Below are positions 2,321 through 18,900 of a stretch of DNA of 18,900 nucleotides, piece by piece. Each line of letters begins with the position of its first letter. Within the stretch, counting starts at the first letter, position 1. This stretch comes from Candidatus Bathyarchaeia archaeon (GTDB taxonomy: Archaea > Thermoproteota > Bathyarchaeia > Bathyarchaeales > Bathycorpusculaceae). The stretch lies in the NCBI GenBank assembly GCA_038883855.1, contig JAVZLH010000017.1:1-18900 (forward strand), given 5' to 3'. Position numbers and translations under genes: made by a program. The notes beneath the pieces were generated by a model. That model was given only the letters and a program-made list of their open reading frames with translations. It did no database searches and was not told the origin of the DNA.

Positions 2321-2366
2321 GCATATATTCTTTTTGGAATATTTTTGTCAAAAAAGTATTTTAATT
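2321..2366. promoter_or_regulatory. Back-to-back archaeal BRE/TATA promoters with inverted repeats
   Basis: The - strand reads CCAAAAAGAATATATG ~25 nt before the regulator ATG, which fits leaderless spacing. The + strand reads CAAAAAAGTATTTTAATT. Inverted repeats: ATATTC-N6-GAATAT (2325-2342) and TTTTTG-T-CAAAAA (2342-2354). Confidence 0.5.
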
Positions 2367-3903
2367 GGAATCGCCATTTGCTTCGAAAAACACTTGGGGG
2401 TGCAATACGCTCGAAAAAAGAACCGTAACCGAAATAAACGAAAAAATCAAACGCGGAGACGTTCAAGTTTTAACAGTTGAAGAAATGAAAAAACTCGTAG
2501 AAGAAAAAGGAGTGAAAAAAGCCTTCAAAGAAGTTGATGTTGTAACAACTGGAACCTTTGGAGCCATGTGCTCTTCAGGAGCAGTCATCAACCTCGGACA
2601 CTCAGACCCGCCAATAAAAATTCAAAGAGCATGGATAAACGACGTAGAAGTTTCCCATCCGGGAGCAGCAGTAGACCTGTACATTGGTGCCGCTCAAATG
2701 TCCGAAACCAAACCATTCGAATACGGCGGAGGACACATAATAGAAGATTTAATAAGCGGAAAAGAGGTGGAGCTCCGAGCAATAGCCTATGGAACTGCCT
2801 GCTATCCCAGAACCAAGATCGAAACCCTGATAAGCAAAGATGATTTGAACCAGTTTATCCTTTTAAACTTCCGCAACTGCTATCAGCGTTATGTGTGCGC
2901 AGTGAACAGCAACGACGAAATACTATACACGTACATGGGCAAACTTCTCCCCCACTTCGGAAACGCCACATTCTCAGGAGCAGGAGAACTAAACCCGCTC
3001 ATGAACGACCCAGACTACGAAACCATAGGCATCGGAACACGCATATTCCTAGGCGGAGCCCAAGGCTACGTCATAGGTGAAGGAACCCAGCACGATCCCG
3101 GAAAACAGATGGGCACCCTTATGGTTAGGGGAGACTGCAAAAAGATGAGTCCAGAATTCATCCGTGGAGCAGCCTTCACAAAGTATGGGACAACGCTTTA
3201 CGTGGGCATAGGCATACCCATCCCAATCCTAAACGAGGAAATAGCCAAAAAAGTAGCCATTCGAGACGAGGAAATCTTCGTTCCCATAGTTGATTATGGA
3301 GTTCCAAGAAGAGACCGCCCAAAGCTTAGGGAAGTCAGCTACAAAGAGTTAAAGTTTGGCAAAATAGTCATTAATGACAAGACCGTGAAAGTTAGTCCGC
3401 TTTCAAGCCTTCAAAAAGCTAAGGAAATTGCTGAAACATTGAAACATTGGATAGCGGAAGGCGCATTCTACCTCTCGGCGCCAGTTGAAAGACTACCGCT
3501 GGACACTGTCTTTAAGCCTATGAAACAGACTAAGGACATAGTTTTTGTTGAAGCCCTAATGCGCTCGGCTACCACATGCGGAGAAGATGAGTCTATTGAA
3601 AAGGTTGCAAAAAAAATCATAACTAACTCAGTCAACCACATAGTGGTTGTAGACGCTCAAGAAAAACTTAGGGGAATAATCACTTCATGGGACATAACAA
3701 GAGCTGTGGCTGAAAATAAAAAAAGCTTAACAGACATAATCATCAGAAAAGTTATAACAACAACACCAGACGAGCCTGTGGAAGCCGCCGCGAGAAAAAT
3801 GACTCAACACAACATCTCAGCCCTACCAGTAATCAATAAAGAAGGAAAAGTGTTGGGCATCATAACCTCGGAGGATGTAGCCAAACTCATAGGGGGCAAA
3901 TAA
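2365..3903 (+). CDS. Homocysteine biosynthesis protein / L-aspartate semialdehyde sulfurtransferase (DUF39 + CBS pair; MA1821/MJ0100 family); true start probably near 2407
   Basis: Family-typical N-terminus RTVTEINEKIKRG and motif VDVVTTGTFGAMCSSGA carrying the conserved Cys. Also NPLMNDPDYETIGIGTRIFLGGAQGYV and a C-terminal CBS pair. It is adjacent to a NIL-ferredoxin. Confidence 0.9.
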   Translation: MESPFASKNTWGCNTLEKRTVTEINEKIKRGDVQVLTVEEMKKLVEEKGVKKAFKEVDVVTTGTFGAMCSSGAVINLGHSDPPIKIQRAWINDVEVSHPGAAVDLYIGAAQMSETKPFEYGGGHIIEDLISGKEVELRAIAYGTACYPRTKIETLISKDDLNQFILLNFRNCYQRYVCAVNSNDEILYTYMGKLLPHFGNATFSGAGELNPLMNDPDYETIGIGTRIFLGGAQGYVIGEGTQHDPGKQMGTLMVRGDCKKMSPEFIRGAAFTKYGTTLYVGIGIPIPILNEEIAKKVAIRDEEIFVPIVDYGVPRRDRPKLREVSYKELKFGKIVINDKTVKVSPLSSLQKAKEIAETLKHWIAEGAFYLSAPVERLPLDTVFKPMKQTKDIVFVEALMRSATTCGEDESIEKVAKKIITNSVNHIVVVDAQEKLRGIITSWDITRAVAENKKSLTDIIIRKVITTTPDEPVEAAARKMTQHNISALPVINKEGKVLGIITSEDVAKLIGGK

Positions 3904-3904
3904 C

Positions 3905-4297
3905 ATGACGAGAGCCGTACTAAAGTTTTCGAAAGAGATTACAAGCGAGCCAATAACATCGCAAATAATCATCGAACATAAGACGCCAATAAACATTTTG
4001 ACAGCCCACATCGACCAGCAAGGCGGAGAAATACTTGTTGAAATACCCTCAGCGCAAGCTGAAAAAATCATCGAAGCTTTCCGTAAAAAAGGCGTAATCG
4101 TCGAACCGCACAAGCCTGTGAAAGTGGATAAAGAGGAATGCATTAGCTGCGGCGCATGTTTTTCTCTCTGCCCAGTGAACGCTATAAAAATCAATGAAGA
4201 CTTTTCAGTTACTTTCAACGACGAGAAATGTTTGGGTAGCGCCTGCAAACTTTGCGTAGACGCTTGCCCCATGAAAGCCATAAAAGTCAGCGTTTAA
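3905..4297 (+). CDS. NIL domain + 2[4Fe-4S] ferredoxin (MA1822/MJ0099-like Fe-S partner)
   Basis: N-terminal NIL-like EPITSQIIIEHKTPINILTAHI. Cys motifs CISCGACFSLCP and CLGSACKLCVDACP. Starts 1 nt after the preceding stop. Confidence 0.88.
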   Translation: MTRAVLKFSKEITSEPITSQIIIEHKTPINILTAHIDQQGGEILVEIPSAQAEKIIEAFRKKGVIVEPHKPVKVDKEECISCGACFSLCPVNAIKINEDFSVTFNDEKCLGSACKLCVDACPMKAIKVSV

Positions 4298-5094: not shown

Positions 5095-5153
5095 TGACTA
5101 TTTTTAGTCATTATTGTTATGAAAAGAAAAAATATGACCAAAAAATATTTAAG
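5095..5153 (+). promoter_or_regulatory. lysW operon promoter (BRE/TATA) with putative operator half-sites
   Basis: Perfect inverted repeat TGACTA-TTTT-TAGTCA (5095-5110). TGACCAAAAAATATTTAAG (5135-5153) includes a TATA-like TATTTAAG and matches the argG upstream element at 18/19 nt. Confidence 0.65.
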
Positions 5154-5187: not shown

Positions 5188-5364
5188 ATGGAAACAGCTG
5201 CTTGCCCAGAATGCGGTGCAAAAATTGAAGTACCCGAAGACGTAACGAAAGGCGAGATAATAACTTGCCCAGACTGTGGACTTGAACTCGAAGTAAAAAG
5301 CGTAAACTCAGACTGTGTCGTAGTAGAGGAGCTGCAAATAGAAGGAGAAGATTGGGGCGAGTAG
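5188..5364 (+). CDS. lysW: LysW/ArgW amino-group carrier protein (58 aa); not in ORF track
   Basis: Manual translation: METAACPECGAKIEVPEDVTKGEIITCPDCGLELEVKSVNSDCVVVEELQIEGEDWGE*. Two CPxCG zinc-ribbon motifs, acidic composition and the diagnostic C-terminal EDWGE. Confidence 0.97.
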   Translation: METAACPECGAKIEVPEDVTKGEIITCPDCGLELEVKSVNSDCVVVEELQIEGEDWGE

Positions 5365-5365
5365 C

Positions 5366-5396
5366 TTTTTTGGCCGAGCCCCACCCAACTTTTTTT
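5366..5396 (+). terminator. Oligo-T tracts after lysW, possible partial archaeal terminator
   Basis: T6 (5366-5371) and T7 (5390-5396) in the 57-nt lysW-lysX gap. Confidence 0.4.
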
Positions 5397-5421
5397 GAAT
5401 TTAATCATCGGATGAACAAAG

Positions 5422-6618
5422 ATGAGCATTGCAATCCTTTATGAACACGCAGGAACAGATGAGATAGGAATACAACTAACCGCTCAAACGCTTGGAATAG
5501 ATTTAACTTTCATACCAGCCCGCAAAATCTCCTTCCTATTCGAAAATGGCAGCCATCAAATCAAAAGCGAGGGAAAAGATTACTTAGAAACTCTCAGAAA
5601 TGTTTCCGTTGTGCTAAACAGGGCGCAAGGCAAAAACCGCAGGCTGTATGTTGGAACAATATTTGAAGCGTTAGGGAAAAACGTCGTTAACCCATCACAA
5701 ATAGAATACGTATGCTTCAGCAAACTCAGAACACTTTTACGTTTCTGGAAAGAGAAAGTCAAGATACCCGCAACAGTCTATATTCCATGCGACCCAAAAG
5801 AAACAACAGTTGACGGACGCAAAATTTCCAACGAAAACGAAATTGCCAGCTTAATCCAACAAGAGTTAAGCAATAAACCAGTAGTGGTTAAGCCAGACGC
5901 AGGCTCCCATGGCAAAAACATCAAATTAGCAAAGGAAAGACAGGAGCTTCTAAAAATTTTAAGCGAAATCGAACCGTCCGTGATAAACCCTATTGGTGTT
6001 TTGGCGCAGGAATTTGTTCAGAAATGGTTCTTCGACTTGAGGATAATTGTTGCCAAGGAAAAGGGAAAGGCTTCTCACTGCTACCCAAAAGCGATGGCTA
6101 GAACTGGACTTAGGGATTTTAGAACAAACGCTTACTTAGGCAACATGGTTTTCGGAATAAACCTTTCCCAAAGGATAAGAGAGGAAGCTGTAAAATGCGC
6201 TGAATCCATCGCGAAAGAATGCGAAGCGTGGGTTTTAGCCCTCGACGCAATGGTAGACTTCGGAAAAGAAATGGTTATTGACAAGGAAATGCTTTCTGAA
6301 TTCGAAAAGCTAACGCCGTTATTCAACGAAATACAGAAGGTCAAAAGCAAAAAAATCACCAGAGAAAACTTTGCCAACTGGAATGAGAAGTTAGAGAAGG
6401 CTTTTCACAACTATGAGAGTTCAGAAGCCTACTGCAACATCAAAGAAACAATAGAGAAAAGCGTCAAAAGCATGGAAAACCACGTAATGTTTCATGAAGC
6501 AAACGCATGCCCAGATTTCTGGGAACAAACGAGGCTGGCGGCTGGAATCGATGTGGCAAAGCAGCTTTTAATGTGCGCCGAAAGCCTCGTTGACAAACAA
6601 ACGTGTTTAACGCATTAA
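5422..6618 (+). CDS. lysX: Atypical RimK/LysX/ArgX-family ATP-grasp ligase (probable LysW:amino-acid ligase)
   Basis: ATP-grasp motifs VVVKPDAGSHG, QEFV, DLRIIV, FRTNAYLG, LALD and HEAN. Lies between lysW and lysY. At 398 aa it is much longer than canonical LysX/ArgX (~280 aa). Confidence 0.72.
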   Translation: MSIAILYEHAGTDEIGIQLTAQTLGIDLTFIPARKISFLFENGSHQIKSEGKDYLETLRNVSVVLNRAQGKNRRLYVGTIFEALGKNVVNPSQIEYVCFSKLRTLLRFWKEKVKIPATVYIPCDPKETTVDGRKISNENEIASLIQQELSNKPVVVKPDAGSHGKNIKLAKERQELLKILSEIEPSVINPIGVLAQEFVQKWFFDLRIIVAKEKGKASHCYPKAMARTGLRDFRTNAYLGNMVFGINLSQRIREEAVKCAESIAKECEAWVLALDAMVDFGKEMVIDKEMLSEFEKLTPLFNEIQKVKSKKITRENFANWNEKLEKAFHNYESSEAYCNIKETIEKSVKSMENHVMFHEANACPDFWEQTRLAAGIDVAKQLLMCAESLVDKQTCLTH

Positions 6619-6636
6619 AATGGGGAGATTAGCAAA

Positions 6637-7689
6637 ATGAGAGTTGGTGTTGTTGGCGGTTCAGGATACGTGGGCGGAGAACTTTTGAGGCTATTATTTC
6701 TCCATCCAAAAGTGGAAATAACCGCGGTGACTTCACAAAAATACGCTGGCGAATTTCTGTTCGTTGTCCACCCAAACCTAAGAGGAGTCACTCAACTAAA
6801 ATTCACTCCTTACAATTTATCTGAAATCGGGAAAAACTGCGACTTGGTGTTCACAGCCCTACCCCATGGAACATCAGTCAAGTTTATCCCAGAACTGCTC
6901 AAAGCTGGTTTAAAAGTTATTGACATGAGCGCGGACTTTCGCCTAAAAAACCCTGAAGATTATACTAAATGGTATGGATGGAGCCACCCCATGCCAGAAT
7001 TGCTGAAAGAAGCTGTTTACGGTCTTCCAGAACTTCACAGAGAGGAAATTAAGAAGGCGAATTTGGTGGCTTGTCCCGGTTGCATGTCAACCGCAACGAT
7101 TTTGGCTCTTGCGCCGCTGGTTAAAGAGGGCTTCATAGACAATGAGAGGATAGTTGTTGACGCAAAAATTGGTTCGTCTGGAGCTGGCAACAACCCGTCA
7201 ATAGCGTCGCATCATCCTGAACGGTCTGGCGGCACAAGACCATACAAGCCAGTTGACCATAGGCATATTGCTGAAATAGAGCAAGAACTTAATTTGGTTG
7301 CGGAAAAGCCTGTTAAGGTTTCGTTTACTCCTCACGCCGTTAACATGGTGCGGGGCATACTTTCGACTGTTCACGCTTTTCTGGTTAAGAATGTGGCGGT
7401 TAAAGACGTGTGGATGGCTTACCGCGCATTGTATGAAAATGAGCCCTTCATCCGCTTTGTCCGTTACAAGAAGGGACTTTACCAGTTTCCAGACCCAAAA
7501 ATCGTGGTTGGCTCAAACTTTTGCGACATAGGCTTTGAGCTGGATTCGCGGGTTAACAGGCTTGTGGTTTTCTCCGCCATAGACAATTTGGTGAAAGGCG
7601 CCGCTGGTCAAGGAATTCAATGTTTCAACATAATGTTGGGTATTGATGAAAAAACGGGTTTGGAACATCCAGGCTTTCATCCGGTGTAG
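6637..7689 (+). CDS. lysY: [LysW]-aminoadipate/glutamate-phosphate reductase (ArgC family)
   Basis: GGSGYVGGEL Rossmann motif, DMSADFRL, VYGLPEL, catalytic CPGC and DNLVKGAAGQ. Confidence 0.95.
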   Translation: MRVGVVGGSGYVGGELLRLLFLHPKVEITAVTSQKYAGEFLFVVHPNLRGVTQLKFTPYNLSEIGKNCDLVFTALPHGTSVKFIPELLKAGLKVIDMSADFRLKNPEDYTKWYGWSHPMPELLKEAVYGLPELHREEIKKANLVACPGCMSTATILALAPLVKEGFIDNERIVVDAKIGSSGAGNNPSIASHHPERSGGTRPYKPVDHRHIAEIEQELNLVAEKPVKVSFTPHAVNMVRGILSTVHAFLVKNVAVKDVWMAYRALYENEPFIRFVRYKKGLYQFPDPKIVVGSNFCDIGFELDSRVNRLVVFSAIDNLVKGAAGQGIQCFNIMLGIDEKTGLEHPGFHPV

Positions 7690-7692
7690 AAA

Positions 7693-8505
7693 ATGTTGAT
7701 TGTTGTGAAAGTTGGGGGAAAAGTTCTGCAAAGCAGCCTTTCCGAAATCGCCGAAGACATAAAGGACATAGTCTGCAAAGGCGAGGATAAGGTGGTTTTC
7801 GTTCATGGAGGAGGAGCAGAAGTAACGCTTATCGCCCAAAAATTGGGTTTAGAACAGAAGTTTGTGATGTCTCCAGAGGGCTTTCGAAGCCGCTACACGG
7901 ACAAGGATACTGTGGAAACGTATAATATGGTGATGTCTGGGAAAATCAACAAAACAGTTGTTTCAACTTTTCAAAGCTTTGGAATAAGAAGCGTTGGGTT
8001 GTCTGGTGTTGATGGCGCGCTTCTTAAGGCGAAGAGGAAGGAAAAGATTATTGTGGTAGATGAGGGGGGGAGGAAGCGGGTTGTGGATGGGGGATTCAGT
8101 GGTAAAATATGCGGGGTGGACACTGGATTGCTTAGGTTGCTAATTGAAAATGGTTATGTGCCAGTAATCTCTCCAGTGGCCATAGGCGAAGAATTCGAGT
8201 TGTTGAATGTTGACGGTGACCGCGCGGCAGCCAACATCGCCGGCGCTTTGCAAGCGGATAGGCTTGTTCTATTAACTGATGTTGACGGTGTGATGCTTGA
8301 CGGGAAAGTCTTGGAAAGGTTGAAGCTTTCTGAAGTTAAAAGCGTTCTTCCAAAGATAGGGGCTGGTATGAGCACTAAGATTCACGCAGCTACAGAAGCC
8401 CTAAACCTCGGCGTGAAAGAGGCGATTATAGCTTCTGGAATGCGGAAATCGCCCGTCTCCTCTTCTGTTAAGCATGAAAGTGGAACAGTGATAACCCATG
8501 GATGA
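7693..8505 (+). CDS. lysZ: [LysW]-aminoadipate/glutamate kinase (ArgB family)
   Basis: Motifs VVKVGG, VHGGG, SPEGFRSRYTD, LLNVDGDRAAA, LTDVDG and GAGMSTK. Confidence 0.95.
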   Translation: MLIVVKVGGKVLQSSLSEIAEDIKDIVCKGEDKVVFVHGGGAEVTLIAQKLGLEQKFVMSPEGFRSRYTDKDTVETYNMVMSGKINKTVVSTFQSFGIRSVGLSGVDGALLKAKRKEKIIVVDEGGRKRVVDGGFSGKICGVDTGLLRLLIENGYVPVISPVAIGEEFELLNVDGDRAAANIAGALQADRLVLLTDVDGVMLDGKVLERLKLSEVKSVLPKIGAGMSTKIHAATEALNLGVKEAIIASGMRKSPVSSSVKHESGTVITHG

Positions 8506-9718
8506 AAAATGGGTGATTGAAACAGAAGATAAGTATTTGGCAAGGGTTTACGCGAAAAAACCAGTTGTGCTCGCTAGGGGAAAAGGAGCTTTCTTGTGGG
8601 ATATTAATGGCAAGAAATACTTGGATTTTACAGGAAACTACGGCGTCTGCATCATCGGATATTCTCGCCCAGAAATAATTCAGGCGTTAAGGAAGCAGAT
8701 AGAGAGGCTTATTCCTTGCCACGGGTCATTTTACAACGAGAAAAGAGCGGAACTGCTGGAAAGGCTAGCGCAGATAGCGCCTAAAGGTTTAACAAAATCC
8801 TTTTTGGGAAACAGCGGAACTGAAGCGGTTGAATGCGCCATCAAAATGGCGCGCAAGTTCACTGGGAAGCCGGAAATAATTGCTATGATGGGTGGCTTTC
8901 ATGGAAAAACTATGGGTGCGCTTTCCGCGACTTGGAAGGAGAAGTATAGGGAGCCTTTTCAGCCTCTTGTTCCAGAGTTTAAACACGTGCCAAGATATAA
9001 CCTTCAGAAAATAAAGGAGGCTATAACAGAAAAGACAGCCGCAGTCATAGCCGAACCAATACAAGGGGAAAGCGGCGTTATTCTTCCGCCAGAAGGTTTC
9101 TTCCAATCTTTAAGGGAGTTATGCGACAAAACTGGAGTTCTTTTAATAATGGATGAGGTTCAGACTGGAATGGGTAGGACAGGCAAGATGTTTGCTTGCG
9201 AACATTGGGGGATAACTCCAGACATCCTTTGCGTTGCGAAGTCCATTGCGGGCGGATTCCCGCTTGGAGTAACCATGGCAAAAGAGGAAATAGCGTCTTC
9301 ATTGGAGGTTGGGGAGCACACGAGCACTTTCGGCGGGAACGCTGTTGCTTGTGCTGCGGCATGCGCCACAATTGATTTGATAGTGCGGGAGAGGCTTCCT
9401 GAAAGGGCTGAGCGTTTGGGGCGTTACTTTTTGGACAGGCTTAGGGAGTTGCAGTCTAAATATAAGGTTGTTAGGGAAGTGCGGGGTTTAGGTTTGATGA
9501 TAGGTGTTGAGTTTAGGGTTGACGTTTTGAATGTTATACTTGGGATGATGCAGAGGGGAGTTTTGGTGCTTGACGCTGGCAAAAACGTGGTGCGGTTCCT
9601 ACCGCCCTTAATCATCACGGAGAAGGATATAGACACGGTCATCGCTGTTATGGATGAAGTTTTGGAGGGAGAAAAGGATAAACGATTACGCAGTTCAGTT
9701 TCTAACGAAGCTTCTTGA
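8498..9718 (+). CDS. lysJ: [LysW]-aminoadipate/glutamate semialdehyde transaminase (class III PLP, ArgD family)
   Basis: NSGTEAVE, FHGKTMG, EPIQGESG, DEVQTGMGRTG, PLP lysine in AKSIAGG, and STFGGN. 8-nt overlap with lysZ. Confidence 0.94.
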   Translation: MDEKWVIETEDKYLARVYAKKPVVLARGKGAFLWDINGKKYLDFTGNYGVCIIGYSRPEIIQALRKQIERLIPCHGSFYNEKRAELLERLAQIAPKGLTKSFLGNSGTEAVECAIKMARKFTGKPEIIAMMGGFHGKTMGALSATWKEKYREPFQPLVPEFKHVPRYNLQKIKEAITEKTAAVIAEPIQGESGVILPPEGFFQSLRELCDKTGVLLIMDEVQTGMGRTGKMFACEHWGITPDILCVAKSIAGGFPLGVTMAKEEIASSLEVGEHTSTFGGNAVACAAACATIDLIVRERLPERAERLGRYFLDRLRELQSKYKVVREVRGLGLMIGVEFRVDVLNVILGMMQRGVLVLDAGKNVVRFLPPLIITEKDIDTVIAVMDEVLEGEKDKRLRSSVSNEAS

Positions 9719-10769
9719 AATTTACAGCCCCTCAGGCAAAGAAGGGGAAATAGGCGCTTTCATAGCGGATGAAATGAAAGAATTGGGTTTTAAAGTTAAA
9801 GTGGACGCGGTTGGAAATGTTATAGGCGAAGTTGGAGTGGGGAAGCCTGAAATTTTGCTGTGCGGTCACATGGACACTGTTCCAGGCTACATTCCAGTGA
9901 GGGCGGTTGACGGTAAATTGTATGGTAGGGGGGCTGTTGACGCGAAATCCTCTTTGGCGACGATGGTTTTAGCCGCTAATTCTGTTGCGGAAAGGTTTTC
10001 GTCTGGAAAAATTTTGGTTGCTGGTGTTGTTGAGGAGGAGAAAACGGGTAAGGGAATGAAACATTTAATAAAGGAGGGTTTGTCGGCGGATTATGCGGTT
10101 TTTGGGGAGCCAAGCGGGGTAGAGAACATAGTTATTGGGTATAAGGGAAGTTTGAGGCTGAAATTGGCTTGTGAAACGCAGGCTGGGCATTCTGCTGCTC
10201 CTTGGCTTTTTGAAAACGCAATTGAGAAGACGTTTGAAGTTTGGAAAGTGATAAGGGAAACTCGTTTTCCAAACGAGGATTTAAACAGCCATTTTTACTC
10301 TGTCACCTCGTGTCTAATTCGGCTTAGAGGAGGCGAATCCGCTGCTTCAAATGTTCCCTCCAAATGCGAAGCCTTAATAGATGTGAGGGTTCCGCCGCAG
10401 TTAACATGCGCGCAAGTTTATGAAGAGATTAAAGGTAAGGTGGCGCAGTATCAGGCTGCAAACCCAAAGGTTACGGTTAACATAAAAGTTGTTGATTCGG
10501 TGGAAGCTTTCGAAACAGACAAGGGCAACCCGCTTGTTAAGGCTCTTTCGTCAGCTGTTAGGAAAGTGAGGGGTAAAACGCCTGTCTTGGTGAGGAAAAC
10601 TGGGACTAGTGATATGAATTTGCTTAGCAGAGCCCTGAAAATTCCAGTTGTGGCTTATGGACCTGGAGACTCGAGTTTGGACCATACTCCCAGTGAGTGG
10701 GTGAGCGTGGAAGAGTATTTGGATAGTATTCGGGTTCTTCAAGAAGGTTTAACAAAGTTGCTTTGTTAA
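9654..10769 (+). CDS. lysK: [LysW]-lysine/ornithine hydrolase (M20 peptidase, ArgE family); start may be 9678
   Basis: YSPSGKE, CGHMDTVPG, YGRGAVDAK, EEE, GEPS, TGTSDMN and YGPGDSSLDHTP. Confidence 0.94.
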   Translation: MKFWREKRINDYAVQFLTKLLEIYSPSGKEGEIGAFIADEMKELGFKVKVDAVGNVIGEVGVGKPEILLCGHMDTVPGYIPVRAVDGKLYGRGAVDAKSSLATMVLAANSVAERFSSGKILVAGVVEEEKTGKGMKHLIKEGLSADYAVFGEPSGVENIVIGYKGSLRLKLACETQAGHSAAPWLFENAIEKTFEVWKVIRETRFPNEDLNSHFYSVTSCLIRLRGGESAASNVPSKCEALIDVRVPPQLTCAQVYEEIKGKVAQYQAANPKVTVNIKVVDSVEAFETDKGNPLVKALSSAVRKVRGKTPVLVRKTGTSDMNLLSRALKIPVVAYGPGDSSLDHTPSEWVSVEEYLDSIRVLQEGLTKLLC

Positions 10770-10788: not shown

Positions 10789-11244
10789 ATGTTTAGGCAA
10801 CGTGAAAATATCCAGAAGTGGCTGTCTGAAATTATTGCGAAGTTTCGGGAAAAGGGCGCCGTCAGCCCAGAAAAGGCAATGAGCGCTGAGGAGCTGGGGG
10901 CTTCCACCAGTCTTTGAAGAGGCAATGAGGGGACGTCTTGGGCGCTCCGGAATTTTTGTTGAGGTGGATGGTAAATACTATCTTTCTGAGGAAAGGTTGA
11001 AGCAGATAAAGGAGATGCTGTCAGCAAGGGGCGAAATGCCAAATCTGAGAAAGAAAGTTACGACGTTGCGGCTGATACAGTTGGTTGCTGTCGTTGTTGT
11101 TGTGGTTATTTTATTGTGAATTTGTTTGTTCAGAGCTGGGAGCTTAGGGTGGTGTCTATTGTTTTACTTGTTGTTTGGCTGCTAATAGCTATACTACAAA
11201 TCTACTACATAACAAAAATACGGAGAAAGTTTACATTTCAGTAG
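10789..11244 (+). pseudogene. Doubly frameshifted gene for a wHTH-like domain plus two transmembrane helices (~151 aa if repaired)
   Basis: Frame 1 gives MFRQRENIQKWLSEIIAKFREKGAVSPEKAMSAEELG and shifts at G5 (10896-10900). Frame 2 gives LPPVFEEAMRGRLGRSGIFVEVDGKYYL...VAVVVVVV and shifts back near T4 (11109-11112). Frame 1 then continues VNLFVQSWELRVVSIVLLVVWLLIAILQIYYITKIRRKFTFQ*. Confidence 0.7.
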
Positions 11245-11413
11245 AAGTCTCTCCTACACTTGCTTAATTGTTCATCTCTTTTGTAAGCACATGTCTGAAT
11301 ATTGACTTGATGGTCAAAGTTTTATCCAAATACAAACTCATTCACTAAAATATTCACATACGGAAAAGCCTGAAAAACCTTTTTTATTCCGAATAATTAA
11401 TAGATAATCATTA

Positions 11414-12091
11414 GTGCAAACTTTGCGCTCCAAATTTCAAAAGATCTTACTCATAGTCATTCTATTAATCCTTAGTGTAGCAATGACTTTTGTTTTGCAA
11501 CATGCAGAAAGCACTCGAATTGAGCAACGTACATTTACTACCACAATAACCATCTCAAATTAAACCATGTTTGGTTCTCCTTTCAATGCTTTTGTTAACA
11601 GAGGTCTCTTTAATTCTCTTGGAGATGTCTATGTGTATATGTCTTCTCCATATGCCAATTATTGGAATACGTTCAACTTTTGGATGTCCTTAGATAACCC
11701 CTCCTGGAAAGATATTCCCTTTATGGAATCCATTACAGATGATTTGACTCAAATGGCATATCCAGGGCGCATTAGTCTATCTGATCCTCAACTAACAATT
11801 TATCAGAAGTACTACGTTCCACCACAAACACTACTTCTTCCGCTTAATGTCACAAAAGAAGACGTTTCAAATATAAGAGCAAATGTTTTGGTTAAGCTAC
11901 AAGCTACACCAGCCGACAGAACTCAATGGATACTAGCGTTTATTACGATGTTTGGGCTTGTTGCGTCTATTGCGGCTATTTTGGATCATTCCTTTTTAGA
12001 AAAAGAATTCAATAAAACTAAGAAATCGCGTACTCACACACTAGAAAGAAAGAATAGAATACTTAAAACCATAAGAAGGTACTTGGACTAG
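11414..12091 (+). pseudogene. Membrane/secreted protein gene interrupted by an in-frame TAA (11561-11563); the ORF track shows only 11567-12091
   Basis: GTG at 11414 gives MQTLRSKFQKILLIVILLILSVAMTFVLQHAES...TISN*TMFGSP..., in frame with the 174-aa ORF. N-terminal signal/TM helix and C-terminal TM (WILAFITMFGLVASIAAIL) with a basic tail. AT-rich. Confidence 0.6.
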
Positions 12092-12127: not shown

Positions 12128-12631
12128 TTATAGTTTTATTCCTTTGTGTTTTTTGACGTAGGGGACCAGTCCGCCTTCTTTGAAAATTTCGAAAACCAGC
12201 TTCGGCAAAGGTTTAAACTTGAGTGACTCTACGCTTCTAGTGTTTTCCACCGTGCCCTTCTCCAAATCTACCCTAAGGATGTCTCCTTCCTTCACTGCGT
12301 CTGATATTCCTTTGCATTCTAGGGCTAGCATTCCAGAGTTTATGGCGTTTCTGTAAAATATTCGCGCAAAGCTTTCAGCCACAACCACTTTTATGCCCAA
12401 AGCCTTCAAAACCAGCGGAGCCTGTTCCCTGCTTGAGCCGCAGCCAAAATTTTTTCCAGCCACTATCAAGTCGCCTTCCCGCACCTTCTCAGCAAAGTCT
12501 GGGCGTATAGCCTCAAAAGCGTGCTTAGCCATCTCCCTCATATCCAACGTGTCATACTTATACTTTCCAGCAATAATCAAATCCGTGTTCACGTCGTCCC
12601 CAAACTTCCACGCTCTACCCTCAACCCTCAT
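12128..12631 (-). CDS. Aconitase-family small subunit (homoaconitase HacB/LysU or isopropylmalate isomerase LeuD)
   Basis: FGDDVNTDLII, AGKNFGCGSSREQAP, AESFARIFYRNAIN and EGGL. Substrate cannot be determined from sequence alone. Confidence 0.92.
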   Translation of the reverse strand: MRVEGRAWKFGDDVNTDLIIAGKYKYDTLDMREMAKHAFEAIRPDFAEKVREGDLIVAGKNFGCGSSREQAPLVLKALGIKVVVAESFARIFYRNAINSGMLALECKGISDAVKEGDILRVDLEKGTVENTRSVESLKFKPLPKLVFEIFKEGGLVPYVKKHKGIKL

Positions 12632-12634
12632 ACC

Positions 12635-13894
12635 CTACAACACCTCTTTAGGACTGGTTATTTTCCCAGTTATTGCCGAAGCAGCGGCAACAGCAGGCGA
12701 AGCCAAATAAATCTCAGCTTTTGGATTTCCCATCCTACCCTTAAAATTCCTATTCTGCGTACTCAAACAAACCTCGCCGTCACCCAACAAACCCAAATGC
12801 CTCCCAACACACGGACCGCATCCAGGCGGGTTTATAACAGCGCCAGCAGCCAACAAACTCTCGATTATTCCAGCTTTCAAAGCCTTCAAATACACTTTGC
12901 GAGAAGCGGGCTGAACAAGCAACCTCACACCCTCCTTAACCTTCCTCCCGCCCAAAATTCGCGCAGCCGTCTGCAAATCCTCAAACCGCCCATTAGTGCA
13001 AGTCCCAATAAAAACCTGATCAACCTCCACGTCGCCTAGTTCAGCAACCGTCTTCACGTTATCAACCGAATGCGGCACAGAAACCATAAAATCAAGCTCA
13101 CTGGCTTTTACGGTGATTTCAGCCGCGTAACGCGCGTTTTCGTCAGGTCCAAGCTCACGGAAACTTTTTCCTCTCTCTTCAAGAAGGAACTGCAAGGTCT
13201 TTTCGTCCACTGGGCAGAAGCCAACCTTCGCGCCAGCCTCAATAGCCATGTTCGTCATCGTAAACCTCGACTCCATACTCATCTCCTTAACGCCTTTGCC
13301 GACAAACTCAATCGCCATATAATCAGCCCCATCCGCGCCCAATTCACCAATCACATAAAGCGTCAAATCCTTAGAAGTTAAAGGCCAATGCAGCCTTCCT
13401 TGAACATCAACCTTTATCGATTCAGGAACTTTCAGCCACGTTTGACCATACGCCATTCCAACCGCTATTTCAGTACTACCCATCCCAGTTGCGAAAGCGC
13501 CCAATGCGCCATGCGTGCACGTGTGGCTGTCAGCGCCTATGATGAGCATTTCTGGCTCAGCAAATTCTTCAATCAAAATCTGGTGGCAAACTCCATACCC
13601 TACATCGCGAAAGTTGCACGAGTGTTTATGTGCAAAATTGCGCATCATCTTGTGAATGTTGCTTACCCTGTCGCTGGGACTCGGCCCCGTATGGTCTATT
13701 ACAAAAAGGATTTTGGAAGAGTCGAAAACTTTGCTGACGCCGAGTTCTGAAAATTCCTCTATTGCAAGTGGTGCCGTTCCGTCATGAGCCATCAGGAAGT
13801 CTATGTCGGCAACAATGATTTCCCCAGCGGTAACAGTCCTTCCAACTTTTTTGGAGAGAATCTTTTCAGCCATAGTTAAGCCTTTTTTGTCCAT
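12635..13894 (-). CDS. Aconitase-family large subunit (homoaconitase HacA/LysT or isopropylmalate isomerase LeuC)
   Basis: GADSHTCTHGA, [4Fe-4S] ligands in IGTCTNGR and GCGPCVG, and NRNFKGRMG. Confidence 0.93.
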   Translation of the reverse strand: MDKKGLTMAEKILSKKVGRTVTAGEIIVADIDFLMAHDGTAPLAIEEFSELGVSKVFDSSKILFVIDHTGPSPSDRVSNIHKMMRNFAHKHSCNFRDVGYGVCHQILIEEFAEPEMLIIGADSHTCTHGALGAFATGMGSTEIAVGMAYGQTWLKVPESIKVDVQGRLHWPLTSKDLTLYVIGELGADGADYMAIEFVGKGVKEMSMESRFTMTNMAIEAGAKVGFCPVDEKTLQFLLEERGKSFRELGPDENARYAAEITVKASELDFMVSVPHSVDNVKTVAELGDVEVDQVFIGTCTNGRFEDLQTAARILGGRKVKEGVRLLVQPASRKVYLKALKAGIIESLLAAGAVINPPGCGPCVGRHLGLLGDGEVCLSTQNRNFKGRMGNPKAEIYLASPAVAAASAITGKITSPKEVL

Positions 13895-13940: not shown

Positions 13941-14639
13941 CTAACGTTGAATCGGTTCTTTAATCATCTTTTTGCTCAGCTTCCTTGCTTCCGCAATCAA
14001 ATTTGTCAACGCAGTCAAAGCCTTCCCAACATCCTTCAACTGCAAAACCAGTATCGTTTCAGTTGAACAGCTTAGGGTTTCCTCAATGTTTACACGCCTT
14101 CTGGAGACAGCGTTATAAAAGGTTGTAATGCAACCGGGAGTCTCAATTATTTTTTGAGGGCTAGTTATTATAAGGGTTACTAAATTGTTTTTCTCTTCAA
14201 AAATGTTTTCCAAGGGAAAGTCTGAACGGATTTTGTCAAACAATTTTTGATCAAAAATTATAGTGACTACTTTAGTTCCTTCTATAATTTGAACATATTC
14301 TTCACGCGCTAAACTAGCCAATATCTTCCGTAGAGTTTCAAGGTTTTTTCTGGTTTTTTCAGCCGAGATTTTCGCTATGTCTGTTCTCAAGTTTATGACG
14401 CTTTCCGCAATAACTTCGGTTACATCCATGTTGTGCGTGGGCTTGTAGGTTACGCTGGCTCTCTTCACCGCCGTTATCACGCTTTCAAGCTTAACCTTGT
14501 GGTTTAAAACTTCTTCAACCATAGGCTTCAGCATCCGCGCTACGGCGCTATAGTTTGCATAGCCCTTCTCAAGCGCGGACTGAAGCGAGAAGTCTTTGTC
14601 TATCAATTCTTGAACAATTCTGGATATACTTTCACTCAA
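13941..14639 (-). CDS. Uncharacterised regulator with N-terminal HTH-like region and C-terminal ACT-like ligand-binding domain(s)
   Basis: N-terminal SLQSALEKGYANYSAVARML...VKLESVITAVKR (helix-turn-helix-like). C-terminal ETPGCITTFYNAVSRRRVNIEETLSCSTETILVL resembles aspartokinase-type ACT. No kinase domain. TTG start. Confidence 0.75.
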   Translation of the reverse strand: MSESISRIVQELIDKDFSLQSALEKGYANYSAVARMLKPMVEEVLNHKVKLESVITAVKRASVTYKPTHNMDVTEVIAESVINLRTDIAKISAEKTRKNLETLRKILASLAREEYVQIIEGTKVVTIIFDQKLFDKIRSDFPLENIFEEKNNLVTLIITSPQKIIETPGCITTFYNAVSRRRVNIEETLSCSTETILVLQLKDVGKALTALTNLIAEARKLSKKMIKEPIQR

Positions 14640-14690
14640 TTTTGGTCACTTTTACAGTTTTTGATATACTTTGACCAAAAAATATATAAG
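14640..14690. promoter_or_regulatory. Divergent regulator/argG promoter with inverted repeat TTTTGGTCA-N23-TGACCAAAA and TATA box
   Basis: Perfect 9-bp inverted arms at 14640-14648 and 14672-14680. TATATAAG at 14683-14690 lies ~24 nt before ATG 14714, consistent with leaderless spacing. Confidence 0.7.
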
Positions 14691-14713
14691 GCTTGCTAGC
14701 ACAAAGCGAACCC

Positions 14714-15937
14714 ATGTCGAAAGAAAAGGTTATACTCGCATACTCAGGTGGATTAGACACATCCATAATGATAAAATGGATTCAAGAAAATTATGAAGCC
14801 GACGTGATTACATTAACCGTGGATGTAGGTCAAGGAATAGACCTTAAAGCCGTAGAAGAAAAGGCATTGGCGATCGGCGCCATTAAACACTATTCAATAG
14901 ACGCAAAACAAGAATTTGTCACAAATTATGTTTTTCCAGCTATAAAGGCAAACGCCCTATATGAAGAAAAATATCCTCTCTGCACAGCGCTTTCACGACC
15001 ATTAATAGCCTCGAAATTAGTTGAGATTGCAGAAAGGGAAAACGCTTCAGTAGTCGCCCACGGATGCACTGGAAAAGGAAACGACCAAGTTCGTTTTGAC
15101 ATAACAACAAAAGCGTTAGCACCAAACCTTAAAGTGATAGCCCCCGTTAGAGAATGGCGATTAACAAGAGACGAAGAAATAGAATTTGCAAAAGAAAGAA
15201 AACTGCCAATCACCTTAAACGCAAAAACCGCCTACAGCACCGACCAAAACCTTTGGGGACGCTCAATCGAATGCGGCATACTCGAACACCCAGATCAAGA
15301 ACCACCAGAAGAAATATACGAGTGGACTCTACCGCCAGAAAAATGTCCAGACGAACCCACATACGTCACCATTGAATTTGAACATGGCGTTCCATGCGCA
15401 CTCAACGATGAACGAAGCGACCCAGTTTCGCTTATTACAAAGCTAAACAAAATTGGGGGGATGAACGGAGTTGGGCGCATAGACCATATTGAAGACAGAA
15501 TTGTGGGAATAAAATCAAGGGAAATCTACGAGTGCCCAGCCGCCACAATCTTAATAGAAGCCCACAAAGACTTAGAAAAAATGGTTCTAACACGCCACGA
15601 AATCGCATTCAAAAAACATGTAGAGGCAGAATGGGCCTTCCTAGTTTACGCAGGTTTATGGGTTGACCCGCTTAGAAAAGACTTGGACGCTTTCATAGAC
15701 AAAACGCAAGAGCACGTAACAGGCAAAGTCAAGTTGAAGCTTTATAGGGGAAACTTGATGGTTGTTGGGCGTTCTTCACCATACTCATTGTACGACTTGA
15801 ACTTGGCAACTTACGACGTGAAAACAACTTTCGACCAGTCTTTAGCACATGGCTTCATTGAACTTTGGGGGCTTCAGTCAAAAACATTCAATGCTCTTAA
15901 AACAAAGCTGGAGCGCGTAGAGAGGAAAGCACTGTGA
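14714..15937 (+). CDS. argG: Argininosuccinate synthase (start at ATG 14714 preferred over TTG 14693)
   Basis: LAYSGGLDTS, HGCTGKGNDQVRF, DQNLWGRSIECG and GIKSREIYECP. Confidence 0.97.
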   Translation: MSKEKVILAYSGGLDTSIMIKWIQENYEADVITLTVDVGQGIDLKAVEEKALAIGAIKHYSIDAKQEFVTNYVFPAIKANALYEEKYPLCTALSRPLIASKLVEIAERENASVVAHGCTGKGNDQVRFDITTKALAPNLKVIAPVREWRLTRDEEIEFAKERKLPITLNAKTAYSTDQNLWGRSIECGILEHPDQEPPEEIYEWTLPPEKCPDEPTYVTIEFEHGVPCALNDERSDPVSLITKLNKIGGMNGVGRIDHIEDRIVGIKSREIYECPAATILIEAHKDLEKMVLTRHEIAFKKHVEAEWAFLVYAGLWVDPLRKDLDAFIDKTQEHVTGKVKLKLYRGNLMVVGRSSPYSLYDLNLATYDVKTTFDQSLAHGFIELWGLQSKTFNALKTKLERVERKAL

Positions 15938-17439
15938 GCGTGCTGTTCAAAAATGGAAGAATAAAATCATCAAGAGAGGATGTTACCCGCTTTATATCCT
16001 CCATAAAAGACGACGAGAAAATTTTGAAGCATGTCATCGAAATAAACGAAGCCCACACAATAATGTTGATGGAACAGAAAATAATAGATAAGGAGCGGGG
16101 AGCCGAACTCCTTAACGCTCTGGAAAAGCTAAAGGCTGAAGTGAAAATTAAGCCATGGATTGAAGACATACATTTATACGTCGAGGAAGAAGTCGCTAAA
16201 AAGGCTAAAGGAGAAGCAGGAGAAAACCTCCACATAGCAAAAAGCAGAAACGACCAAGTGGCAACAGCCATCAGAATGAAGCTGCGCGAAGAACTGATAA
16301 GCCTAATGAAAACTGTGCTTGATTTCCAGAAGGACCTTTTGAAAAAAGCTGAAAAACACACTGAAACAATCATACCTGGCTACACCCACTTAAGAGCAGC
16401 CCAACCAATAACCTTCTCCCATTATATCTTATACCAGTTTGACGTTTTTCAAAGAAGCTTGCAGAGACTCATGGAATGTTATGGTAGAGTTAACGCTTGT
16501 CCGATGGGAGCAGCAGCCATAGCCACAACAAGCTTCCCAATAAACAGAGAACGCGTTGCAGAGCTTTTGGGTTTCGCCGAAGTTCTTGAAAACTCTATGG
16601 ACGCTGTCGGCAGCAGAGACTTTGTTCTGGAAACCCTCGCGATTTTGTCAATAATTGCCATTGACATAAGCCGCCTAGCTGAAGACCTAATAGTTTGGAG
16701 CACTCCAGAATTTAATCTAATAGAGCTGCCAGACGAGTTTTGCTCAACCAGCAGCATAATGCCGCAGAAAAAGAACCCCGACATGCTAGAGGTTATACGC
16801 GCCAGAATGAGCCACGTAATAAGCAATTTTACGGCCTGCGCATTAACCTTAAAGTCCCTTCCGTCGGGCTATAACTTGGACTTTCAAGAGGTTACACCGA
16901 AACTTTGGGAATCACTGGAAAAGGTTAACGAATCACTTAAAATGTTATCCAATGTGGTCGCTTCTTGCGAGCCTAAAGGACAAACCGCAAAAAATCCGAT
17001 TTTGGCTTTTTCAACATCGACCGAACTTGTGCGCATACTATTCCAAAAATATAATGTTCCTTTCAGAACAGCCCACAAGATTGTTGGCGCCTTAGTCAGA
17101 AAACTAAGCGAGAAGGAACTAAACATTACAGATGTAACGGCGGAAATGCTGAAGGAAACAGCAAAAGAAGTTGCGGGCATATCATTGACGGCAAGCACAG
17201 ACGATTTGAAGACAGCCGCTGACGTGGTTAGCTTTGTTAAAACCCACAGCGTTCGGGGAGGTCCATCTCCAGTGGAAGTTCAAAGAATGCTTGGTTCTCG
17301 CAAGGACATTTTTGCCTCAATGAATGTGCAGTTAGCTAAAATGGAGACAGAAATCGTGGATGCACACAAAAAACTGGGTGACTTGGTTGAAAAACTGTGC
17401 AGTTCACCAAAACCAAAAAGCTTAAAAATGGTGGTGTAG
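15934..17439 (+). CDS. argH: Argininosuccinate lyase
   Basis: SRNDQVAT, PGYTHL and the fumarate-lyase signature SSIMPQKKNPD. GTGA overlap with argG. Confidence 0.97.
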   Translation: MSVLFKNGRIKSSREDVTRFISSIKDDEKILKHVIEINEAHTIMLMEQKIIDKERGAELLNALEKLKAEVKIKPWIEDIHLYVEEEVAKKAKGEAGENLHIAKSRNDQVATAIRMKLREELISLMKTVLDFQKDLLKKAEKHTETIIPGYTHLRAAQPITFSHYILYQFDVFQRSLQRLMECYGRVNACPMGAAAIATTSFPINRERVAELLGFAEVLENSMDAVGSRDFVLETLAILSIIAIDISRLAEDLIVWSTPEFNLIELPDEFCSTSSIMPQKKNPDMLEVIRARMSHVISNFTACALTLKSLPSGYNLDFQEVTPKLWESLEKVNESLKMLSNVVASCEPKGQTAKNPILAFSTSTELVRILFQKYNVPFRTAHKIVGALVRKLSEKELNITDVTAEMLKETAKEVAGISLTASTDDLKTAADVVSFVKTHSVRGGPSPVEVQRMLGSRKDIFASMNVQLAKMETEIVDAHKKLGDLVEKLCSSPKPKSLKMVV

Positions 17440-17443
17440 AATT

Positions 17444-18592
17444 TTGAGAGGGCTTTTGGGTAAGGAAATATCGCCCAGAGAAAGAAAAGCGGCACTAGCC
17501 TTAGAAGACGGAACCTGCCTTATTGGTTATGGTTTTGGAGCAACCAAGAAGGTAACAGGGGAAGTCGTGTTTTCAACATCCATGGTAGGCTATGTAGAAG
17601 CCCTAACAGACCCCTCCTACCACGGTCAAATCCTAACCTTAACCTATCCCCTAGTAGGCAATTATGGTGTTCCAGCACATTCTAAAGGGAAATTGTCGCC
17701 GCCCTTCGAGTCGGACGGAATCAAAGTTGACGGGCTTGTGATTCACGAACTCTGCGAAAAACCACACCACTGGGCTTCCAGAAAAACCTTGAATGAGTGG
17801 CTAATGGAAGAGGGAGTTCCAGGAATCTTCGGGGTGGATACACGAATGCTTACGAAGAAGCTTAGAATCAGCGGTGTAATGCGTGGAATACTTCAAGTTT
17901 TTGAGGAAGGCGAAAAACCAGATGTTGGAAAGCTTCTGGAAGAGGTTAAAGATGTCCCAGACCCAAACTTGAGAAACTTGGCTGGTGAAGTTTCAATAAA
18001 AGAACCTATATGTTATAACCCGGAAGGAAAAAAGGCTGTTGTGTTAATTGACTGCGGCGTCAAACACAGCATTTTAATAAACCTGATCGCGCGTGGGTTG
18101 AAGGTTATCCGTGTTCCATACAACTATTCAGCCAAAGAAATAATGGAATACAAGCCAGACGGAGTTATAGTAAGCAACGGTCCAGGAGACCCAAAGAAAT
18201 GTTGGGAGACGGTGGAATGCGTCAGAGAACTTATAGAAGAAGAGTTTCCAGTGATGGGGATATGTCTTGGAAACCAAATAATAGCTTTGGCACTTGGCGC
18301 AAACACCTACAAAATGAAGTATGGGCATCGCTCGCAAAACCAGCCTGCGCTTAACCCTGAAACAAACAGATGCTACATAACAACCCAAAACCACGGTTAC
18401 GCCGTGGACGCAAACTCCCTAGGCGAAACAGAGCTTAAGGTTTGGTTTGTAAACGCCAATGACGGCACAGTTGAAGGCTTGAAACATAAGCAAAAGCCTG
18501 TTTTCTCCGTCCAGTTTCATCCAGAAGCAAGTCCAGGTCCATATGACACCGAGTTTCTTTTCGACGATTTTATATCGCTTATGAAAGGGTGA
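17444..18592 (+). CDS. carA: Carbamoyl-phosphate synthase small (glutaminase) subunit
   Basis: [18 protein letters not shown], catalytic [13 protein letters not shown] and [10 protein letters not shown]. Confidence 0.97.
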
Positions 18593-18594
18593 AA

Positions 18595-18900
18595 ATGATG
18601 CCGAAGTTTGAATGGGTAAAGAAAGTTCTGGTTCTGGGAAGTGGCGCAATAAAAATTGGCGAAGCCGCAGAGTTTGATTATTCTGGAAGCCAATGTCTTA
18701 AGGCGTTAAAAGAAGAGGGGATAGAAACAGTTCTCATCAACCCCAATATAGCTACGATACAGAGTGACCCGCGCTTAGCTGGGAAAGTTTACCTACTTCC
18801 AGTTGAACCCCAATACGTTGAAGAAGTCATCAAAAAAGAGAAGCCTGACGCCATACTGCTCGGTTTCGGAGGTCAAACAGCTCTAAACTGCGGCGTTCAG
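18595..18900 (+). CDS. carB: Carbamoyl-phosphate synthase large subunit, N-terminal fragment (runs off window); not in ORF track
   Basis: Manual translation: [58 protein letters not shown]...[13 protein letters not shown]. Confidence 0.97.

Follow-up and report, generated by a model that had tools for sequence, protein, structure and literature searches.

A DUF7523-type protein with tandem ACT domains, encoded divergently from argG, is a candidate amino-acid-sensing transcription factor of Bathyarchaeia

Control of arginine biosynthesis is poorly known in most archaea, few of which are known to possess an ArgR of the bacterial type. Bacterial ArgR exerts feedback control on arginine biosynthesis, regulates its own gene and acts on palindromic boxes at promoters. 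On the archaeal side, the closest described system is LysM of Sulfolobus, a regulator of the Lrp/AsnC type which controls lysWXJK. Here, an open reading frame (ORF) of 232 amino acids (13941–14639, minus strand, TTG start; 'REG', referred to as the regulator gene below) was analysed, which lies divergently to argG on contig JAVZLH010000017.1 of a Candidatus Bathyarchaeia archaeon. The whole stretch of DNA, termed the window, is a complete 18.9-kb contig of a 1.1-Mb archaeal metagenome-assembled genome (MAG; 85% complete), and the nearest relatives of its proteins are labelled Bathyarchaeia. The encoded protein, consisting of a four-helix domain (residues 1–70) and a tandem ACT region (residues 71–219), is rather likely to be an amino-acid-sensing, autoregulated transcription factor of an uncharacterised archaeal family (DUF7523 + tandem ACT).

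In this role, the protein would resemble LysM as an amino-acid-sensing regulator of the archaeal LysW pathway that is encoded beside its target, and Lrp/AsnC genes hold the equivalent slot by argG or lysW in related Bathyarchaeia. Unlike LysM, it has no HTH_AsnC or RAM domain, its sensor being a tandem ACT region of the aspartokinase type; the presumed sites are 39–40 bp apart, compared with 21 bp for LysM, and the conserved partner is argG or carAB, not lysW. The proposed role also recalls ArgR with regard to feedback on arginine genes, autoregulation and palindromic boxes overlapping promoters. It differs from ArgR in the motif and in the transcription machinery, which is archaeal (TBP/TFB), and no ArgR-domain match was obtained, the similarity being confined to a generic Z of 6.3 over 68 residues to the oligomerisation domain (1b4b). 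A third relationship is that to the aspartokinase beta subunit and other tandem ACT proteins, with which residues 71–219 share the fold and a glycine-containing TPG stretch. In contrast to that subunit, the window protein has an additional conserved helical N-domain of 70 residues, no kinase domain is encoded with it, and in the genome it is paired divergently with argG or carAB.

Searches of the window protein against Pfam and NCBIfam at E ≤ 1 gave no DUF7523, ACT, HTH_AsnC/RAM or ArgR match, the single hint being a weak aspartokinase C-terminal match (6.6e-4), and the DUF7523 (PF24367) model found nothing in the whole genome at E ≤ 0.01. A profile of the N-domain, compared by hhalign with an Lrp/AsnC alignment from related genomes, reached a probability of 0.2. 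The preliminary description of the locus, which had noted no resemblance to ArgR or Lrp/LysM, was correct in this respect. Relatives of the same length were retrieved in a word-indexed search (151 at E ≤ 0.001) and in an exhaustive phmmer search (1178 representative clusters at E ≤ 0.001, including 322 at E ≤ 1e-10); the majority of the listed ones align across approximately residues 3–220. An alignment of 52 members, hand-picked to cover 23–77% identity, contained ACT_7 in 47, ACT_9 in 28 and DUF7523 in 21 sequences, the last over the N-terminal 60–135 residues. One relative, P0181, matches DUF7523 at 6.9e-16 and was retrieved with the window protein at 1.9e-18. Full-length homology of the window protein to proteins with DUF7523 and ACT_7 was thereby established, and neighbouring clusters in the ESM Atlas are named 'DUF7523 domain-containing protein' and 'UCP014439, ACT family protein'. 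These sequence comparisons place the window protein in a large archaeal family that is uncharacterised (Pfam DUF7523 + ACT_7) and from which the relatives retrieved carry both domains over their full length; it differs from them in falling below the Pfam model, and the family has no attached function. Among 14 control genomes, Haloferax volcanii, which is genetically tractable, was the sole match of the DUF7523 model.

The family may correspond to COG2150, an orthologous group annotated as 'predicted regulator of amino acid metabolism, ACT domain'. A description of such a regulator or a paper on DUF7523 was not found in the literature searched (subscription journals and supplements lay outside the search), and the preliminary description, which knew of no account of such a regulon, holds to that extent. 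For UCP014439, PIRSF014439, IPR014424 and COG2150, only the term COG2150 was found; in the accessible part of the source it is merely listed, as euryarchaeal (PMC1852104). The accessible part of the GapMind preprint discusses other ACT proteins.

An AlphaFold (AF2) model of the full protein was obtained with a predicted local distance difference test (pLDDT) score of 93.8. Residues 71–219 were superposed by VIA-align on aspartokinase regulatory domains with Z scores of 14.9 (5yei_C), 13.9 (3c1m_A) and 13.8 (3mah_A), the superpositions spanning approximately 130–142 residues; Foldseek gave 4.8e-08 to 3c1n_D, and a PDB profile search gave 3l76 at 1e-10. Two beta-alpha-beta-beta-alpha-beta units and a conserved glycine-containing stretch, as tested for ACT architecture, are present. 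Across the 52 aligned sequences, G169 is invariant and sits inside the conserved TPG stretch, with P161 and P168 near-invariant; from general knowledge of ACT domains, this stretch is presumably the ligand loop. At the level of the structure model, the C-terminus described previously as ACT-like is confirmed as an aspartokinase-type tandem ACT sensor. Homodimer prediction gave a score of 0.29 (mark 0.42) and was used for neither side of the argument.

Residues 1–70 form four helices (domain-only model, pLDDT 86), helix 3 spanning residues 30–45 and helix 4 containing R60. For the N-domain model, 22 of the then 30 loci were used, after removal of near-duplicates and of three further copies, one truncated, one a pseudogene and one lacking a canonical start. 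The top VIA-align hit was the N-domain of GlnRS (Z 6.1), which is not significant; BEN–DNA complexes were matched at Z 5.9, 5.3, 4.5 and 4.3, under the values that unrelated helical domains attain, and a homeobox at 4.1. Foldseek returned no hit at E ≤ 0.001, and the PDB profile search none at E ≤ 10. Since residues 1–70 have no significant structural match, a helix–turn–helix (HTH) is not demonstrated, and the 'HTH-like N-terminus' of the preliminary description is better replaced by a four-helix domain with no demonstrable HTH relationship. In favour of the regulator reading, polar and basic residues of the N-domain are conserved: positions N29, A34 and R60 are invariant or near-invariant in the 52 sequences, and S31 and R35 additionally so in the 22. 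A residue-level comparison of the N-domain with motif class for co-variation gave no clear pattern.

The start of the regulator ORF can be placed with some certainty. An in-frame TGA three codons 5′ of the TTG prevents any upstream extension and, together with homolog alignments beginning at residue 1–4, makes the start call sound. Between this TTG and the ATG of argG (14714) lies a gap of 74 bp (14640–14713), as stated in the preliminary description. The gap holds a perfect inverted repeat, TTTTGGTCA-N23-TGACCAAAA, the arms being 100% complementary with 23 nt between them; it is the sole exact TGGTCA-N20..27-TGACCA in the 1.1-Mb genome. As described before, the left arm (14640–14648) touches the start codon of the regulator and the right arm (14672–14680) stands at the argG promoter, where a half-site TGACCA(AAA) is fused to the putative TFB recognition element (BRE) and TATA box of argG (AAAAAATATATAAG, 14672–14690, plus strand). 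The argG TATA box (14683–14689) is 25–31 nt before the ATG, so the argG mRNA is probably leaderless and the half-site at 14672–14677 would cover the BRE position. On the minus strand, the promoter of the regulator itself has a putative TATA box (GTATATCAA, 14661–14669) ~26 nt from the TTG, which would imply a leaderless regulator mRNA as well and place the TGGTCA arm between this TATA box and the start.

The 9-mer TGACCAAAA by itself is unremarkable, because its 11 copies in the genome roughly match the ~12 expected from base-composition arithmetic; 3 of the 11 sit in the argG and lysW promoters. Its extension to the 19-mer TGACCAAAAAATATWTAAG occurs at positions 5135 (lysW) and 14672 (argG) only, no match was produced in 200 window shuffles, and a scan of the whole genome at ≤4 mismatches revealed no further site. 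The repeat observation is real and non-random.

For comparison across the class, 201 genomes were sampled, of which 107 had a family match and 26 (G000 included) had clear orthologs at E ≤ 1e-57. These gave 25 ortholog loci, 24 of them assessable since one (L026) is cut by a contig end. The ortholog is adjacent and divergent to argG in 22 of the 24, so the synteny with the arg cluster that was to be expected from the preliminary description is present. The exceptions are L011, where argG is absent within 1.5 kb, and L019, where lysX (opposite strand) is followed by the regulator and then by lysW-argG (same strand). Distant members (~20–35% identity) were collected from 40 genomes picked by a member within ~1 kb of argG, and are divergent from argG in all 40 and in the loci L030 and L031; this count of 42 loci is a selected lower bound, because distant members also stand away from argG, for instance in genus g38 and family f29. 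With P0181 as the query, 15 loci were retrieved from Hydrothermarchaeota and related MAGs, 14 of which are divergent from carA, with carB beyond carA wherever the locus extends far enough.

Where a genome lacks the gene, its place opposite argG is frequently taken by an Lrp/AsnC regulator; of seven ORFs of this kind, four were checked in Pfam and gave HTH_AsnC-type matches at 1e-13 to 1e-18. This marks the argG-divergent position as a regulator slot. The case illustrates the replacement of a regulator at a fixed slot, with Lrp/AsnC proteins in some lineages and DUF7523-ACT proteins in others. Two single loci were recorded in addition. L029 (G043:C24:4584-5174) contains a pseudogene-like regulator remnant with 9 in-frame stops between lysW-argG and lysX. 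L021 (G196) has an ortholog with CTG at the dyad-embedded start (CGACCAGTTTTGGTCA), compared with ATG or TTG in relatives; the CTG may reflect either the use of a non-canonical start or a mutation of recent origin.

Alignment of the ortholog intergenic regions gave as the conserved unit a 16-bp dyad, TGACCA-N4-TGGTCA (ideal duplex TGACCATTTTTGGTCA), positioned on the start codon of the regulator, with one arm formed by the start codon and the four bases that follow it (ATG/TTG GTC A). A third half-site, TGACCA(AAA), is found directly upstream of the argG TATA box, 23–24 nt after the dyad. At ≤2 mismatches, all 20 ortholog loci from outside the window's clade have the dyad at the start of the regulator, including the two without the usual argG arrangement (L011 and L019 were scored at the regulator start, the other 18 in a scan upstream of argG, with argG starts from permissive tblastn). 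The TGACC arms are therefore co-conserved with the ortholog, a point that the preliminary description had proposed to check. Within the window's clade the coding-side arm of the dyad has decayed, the number of mismatches being 2 for L004, 3 for L005 and 4 for both L001 and L003; best matches with 3 mismatches in L001 and L003 fall in coding sequence, the position-equivalent dyad having 4. In the window, the dyad position (14633–14648) reads CACTCA-ATTT-TGGTCA, with 4 mismatches from the decayed coding-side arm and an intact TGGTCA (14643–14648). From these alignments, the functional unit is most likely the 16-bp dyad together with the promoter-proximal half-site 39–40 bp away (centre to centre). 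The N23 repeat, previously taken for the operator, is a true repeat, but it consists of the inner dyad arm and the half-site and would be a remnant of the 16-bp dyad. In the accessible part of the article on LysM, that regulator uses principal and accessory sites (PMC3597687), to which the dyad and the proximal site can be likened.

Control regions gave a corresponding picture. None of the 42 loci with only distant members had the dyad at ≤3 mismatches (best 4), and among 40 regions upstream of an argG that does not have the gene as its neighbour, three had it at ≤2 mismatches, all from one genus (G103, G137 and G176); G137 possesses an ortholog on another contig with a 1-mismatch dyad of its own. 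The exact N4 pattern was counted at 21 sites in 15 of the 201 genomes, 6 of them exactly on a regulator start and two, in G103 and G137, ~95 nt before argG. With an N5 spacing, which served as an unplanned control, 15 sites in 12 genomes were found, 0 of them at a regulator gene. Further dyad matches in ortholog-bearing genomes were treated as chance, because they lie mostly within long ORFs or have G+C-rich spacers. A conserved dyad-symmetric site thus stands at the gene's own promoter and at that of its putative target, and co-occurs with the gene.

Two dyad arrangements apart from the regulator gene were also seen. An orphan module (TGACCA-N4-TGGTCA, ~24 nt, then TGACC[A/G]TAAGAGATAA) is common to two distant families at L049:1501-1580 (G191:C14) and L142:1501-1580 (G137:C19), with no conserved ORF or Rfam RNA downstream. 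In L134 and L135 (G103:C28, G137:C34), ~70–95 nt upstream of argG, the dyads TGACCA-N4-TGGTCA and TTGTCCA-N4-TGGACAA are adjacent, with 5–6 nt between them and centres ~21 bp apart.

At lysW, a complete dyad (TGACTA-TTTT-TAGTCA, 5095–5110) is followed after 24 nt by a half-site and TATA element (TGACCAAAAAATATTTAAG, 5135–5153, plus strand). The arrangement at argG had been said to recur here; the TATA-proximal element does so, but the distal element is a complete TGACTA-N4-TAGTCA dyad, and the two arrangements are not identical. The module of dyad, N24 and half-site/TATA matches between the window and both sister genera with lysW, while the flanks diverge: G145 has TGACTA-N4-TGGTCA, then TGACCAAAAAATATATAAA, and G190 has TGACCA-N4-TGGTCt, then TGACCAAAATATTTATAAG; lysW was not found in G163. 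By these promoter comparisons, lysW appears to be controlled through the module in the three genera of the window's clade only. The f2 genomes checked have an Lrp/AsnC gene in divergent orientation to lysW (Pfam-checked in L163 and L172), and f1 genera with a distant form of 201 amino acids have a different motif common to argG and lysW. Joint control of argG and lysW thus appears lineage-specific yet recurring, since the module is limited to one clade and f1 shares another motif at both genes. The earlier proposal of one factor over three units (lysWXYZJK, the regulator–aconitase pair and argGH-carAB) is upheld insofar as the argG and lysW promoters share a module here; the link to lysW and the co-direction of regulator and aconitase genes are both confined to the clade. 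As a separate observation, lysW promoters of f5 (L153, L154, L159, L160, L164 and L165) have a different conserved palindrome, TACGAAnTTCGTA, with a TCCGAAATTCTTATAAATA element, presumably the operator of another regulator.

Other motifs accompany the distant members. Bathyarchaeia of the f1 genera g3, g4, g7, g8 and g9 have ATGTAYCA-AA-TGGWACAT-like dyads beside the gene start. In family f18 and others, TTTGTAACAnnTATGTCATAAA is fused directly to a single TATATA box, ~25–30 nt from the regulator ATG; the single box precedes argG too (L076-L101), which, with the regulator ATG so near, suggests a bidirectional promoter with one shared TATA box. Hydrothermarchaeota loci have TGTCAnATTTGAC or AATGTATCAAATGGTA. 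The sequence ATGTAYCAAATGGWA is present in 5 of 207 fetched loci, namely in three regulator–argG gaps of Bathyarchaeia and two regulator–carA gaps of Hydrothermarchaeota, and since a family member is the only thing common to the five, it can be argued that the family itself reads this sequence. In our own reading, a loose common half-site, TG(N)TCA, may run through the motif types.

The sequence features, the sensor fold, the synteny and the motif conservation are observed; DNA binding by the protein, its ligand and the sign of regulation are inferred, and the mechanism proposed is as follows. The ACT module would bind a metabolite of the pathway, be it the end product or an intermediate, most likely L-arginine because the conserved partner is argG or carAB, with lysine as a possibility. 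Dimers or higher oligomers would recognise TGACCA-type half-sites as the 16-bp dyad, with a second, promoter-proximal half-site fused to BRE/TATA 39–40 bp away; as this distance, measured centre to centre, corresponds to ~four helical turns, it suggests two dimers binding cooperatively. Such a module would act in front of lysWXYZJK and in the 74-bp gap between the regulator and argGH-carAB. In the gap, one site would lie on the regulator's own transcription and translation start, giving autoregulation, and the other on the argG BRE/TATA, so that ligand-dependent repression might work by occluding TFB/TBP and the regulator's own start site. Repression, with autorepression, is given a slight preference over activation. 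The autoregulated amino-acid-sensing factor of the preliminary description is retained here as regards the conserved pairing of gene and operator, the site on its own start and the small-molecule sensor domain; the part not carried through is the DNA-binding fold, which could not be demonstrated.

A broader reading, which we see as evenly balanced between right and wrong, is that DUF7523-ACT proteins form an unrecognised, phylum-spanning family of archaeal transcription factors with a new four-helix DNA-binding domain fused to a tandem ACT sensor of the aspartokinase type, serving as arginine regulators in lineages without ArgR, divergently paired with argG in Bathyarchaeia or carAB in Hydrothermarchaeota, and using TG(N)TCA half-sites that drift with the protein. 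If true, a function would be given to a large DUF family, a new DNA-binding domain would be added to the archaeal repertoire, and the predicted operator, regulon and ligand class would be directly testable.

Several points weigh against a DNA-binding regulator of this kind. A DNA-binding fold was not demonstrable for residues 1–70 by VIA-align, Foldseek, PDB profile or hhalign, and the window protein itself, as opposed to its relatives, matches neither DUF7523 nor any ACT Pfam model. The genome contains four Lrp/AsnC genes, none on the window contig, whose products could in principle bind the sites. G103 and G176 (each 84% complete) have the dyad upstream of argG, and the regulator gene was not found in them even with the G137 protein as query; the preliminary description had named a motif persisting in genomes that lack the gene as evidence against its proposal, and this would apply to these two genomes, while the distant-member and gene-free regions (0 of 42 and 3 of 40) speak for co-occurrence. 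Genomes of families f5 and f2 that possess the ortholog do not show the module at lysW, and the dyad at the start codon is partly under coding constraint as well (ATG GTC AAx). The sequencing runs containing the stretch are hot-spring metagenomes, with no RNA run among those listed.

The most probable alternative, although we consider it unlikely, is that the protein is an ACT sensor or regulatory subunit which acts on a protein partner (ArgG, carbamoyl-phosphate synthetase or another transcription factor) and does not bind DNA, the dyads being bound by another factor such as an Lrp/AsnC protein. The closeness of residues 71–219 to the stand-alone aspartokinase regulatory (beta) subunit would be in line with this, but enzyme subunits are normally co-transcribed with their partner, whereas here 22 of the 24 assessable ortholog loci and 42 + 14 loci of distant members have the divergent arrangement. 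The partner switches between phyla (argG or carAB), yet the genes stay divergent and a motif close to the regulator is retained. The failure to find a DNA-binding fold in the N-domain and the four Lrp/AsnC genes of the genome would both fit a foreign factor on the dyads; against this, a dyad stands on the gene's own start even with argG elsewhere, and where the gene is absent its slot is filled by a genuine regulator. The dyad goes together with the ortholog, with the two genomes mentioned (dyad found, gene not found) on the other side.

Far less probable is the binding of RNA by the N-domain, with post-transcriptional action on the 5′ ends of leaderless arg/lys mRNAs: the top, though weak, N-domain match is the tRNA-binding domain of GlnRS and the motif overlaps start codons, but most of the dyad and the TATA-proximal half-site are upstream of any plausible transcript, the lysW dyad is ~40 bp upstream of the TATA box, and dyad symmetry fits double-stranded DNA. 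Least credible of all is a repeat due to chance or to mere shared BRE/TATA sequence beside an unrelated ACT protein, for despite the near-expected copy number of the 9-mer and the partly A/T-rich TATA region in the shared 19-mer, the latter was absent from all 200 shuffles and from the rest of the genome, and from genus to genus and family to family the half-sites persist in intergenic sequence that otherwise diverges. The transcription factor reading, borne out for the most part by the comparative genomics and with the operator model refined, is preferred.

Regarding the remaining genes of the window, argG (14714–15937), argH (15934–17439), carA (17444–18592) and carB (18589 to the window end at 18900, incomplete) are all on the plus strand and form a likely operon, because they are co-directional and overlapping or abutting. 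The lys cluster (5188–10769, plus strand) comprises lysW (5188–5364), a lysX-like ATP-grasp gene (5422–6618), lysY/argC (6637–7689), lysZ (7693–8505), lysJ/argD (8498–9718) and lysK (9654–10769). A pair of homoaconitase/isopropylmalate-isomerase type, with large subunit at 12635–13894 and small subunit at 12128–12631 (both minus strand), is on the same strand as the regulator and 46 bp downstream of it; this co-directional layout is restricted to the window's clade, the two genes being convergent elsewhere. Rfam and tRNA scans of the window gave no matches.

The lysX-like ORF has 398 amino acids, of which RimK/LysX models cover approximately residues 1–267, leaving a C-terminal extension of ~130 residues with no family match. 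Behind the lys cluster, at approximately 10790–10916 and 10925–11119, successive short frames resemble one small gene with a hydrophobic C-terminal stretch, separated by a frameshift at a five-G run near 10887–10891, and the following 450 bp (11120–11566) have no ORF, tRNA or Rfam match. Just upstream of the lys cluster (2365–4297) stand two ORFs that make unusual neighbours: the first, of 512 amino acids, is like methanogenesis marker 16 metalloprotein, with CBS domains at its C-terminus, and the second encodes a ferredoxin that combines a NIL domain with two 4Fe-4S clusters.

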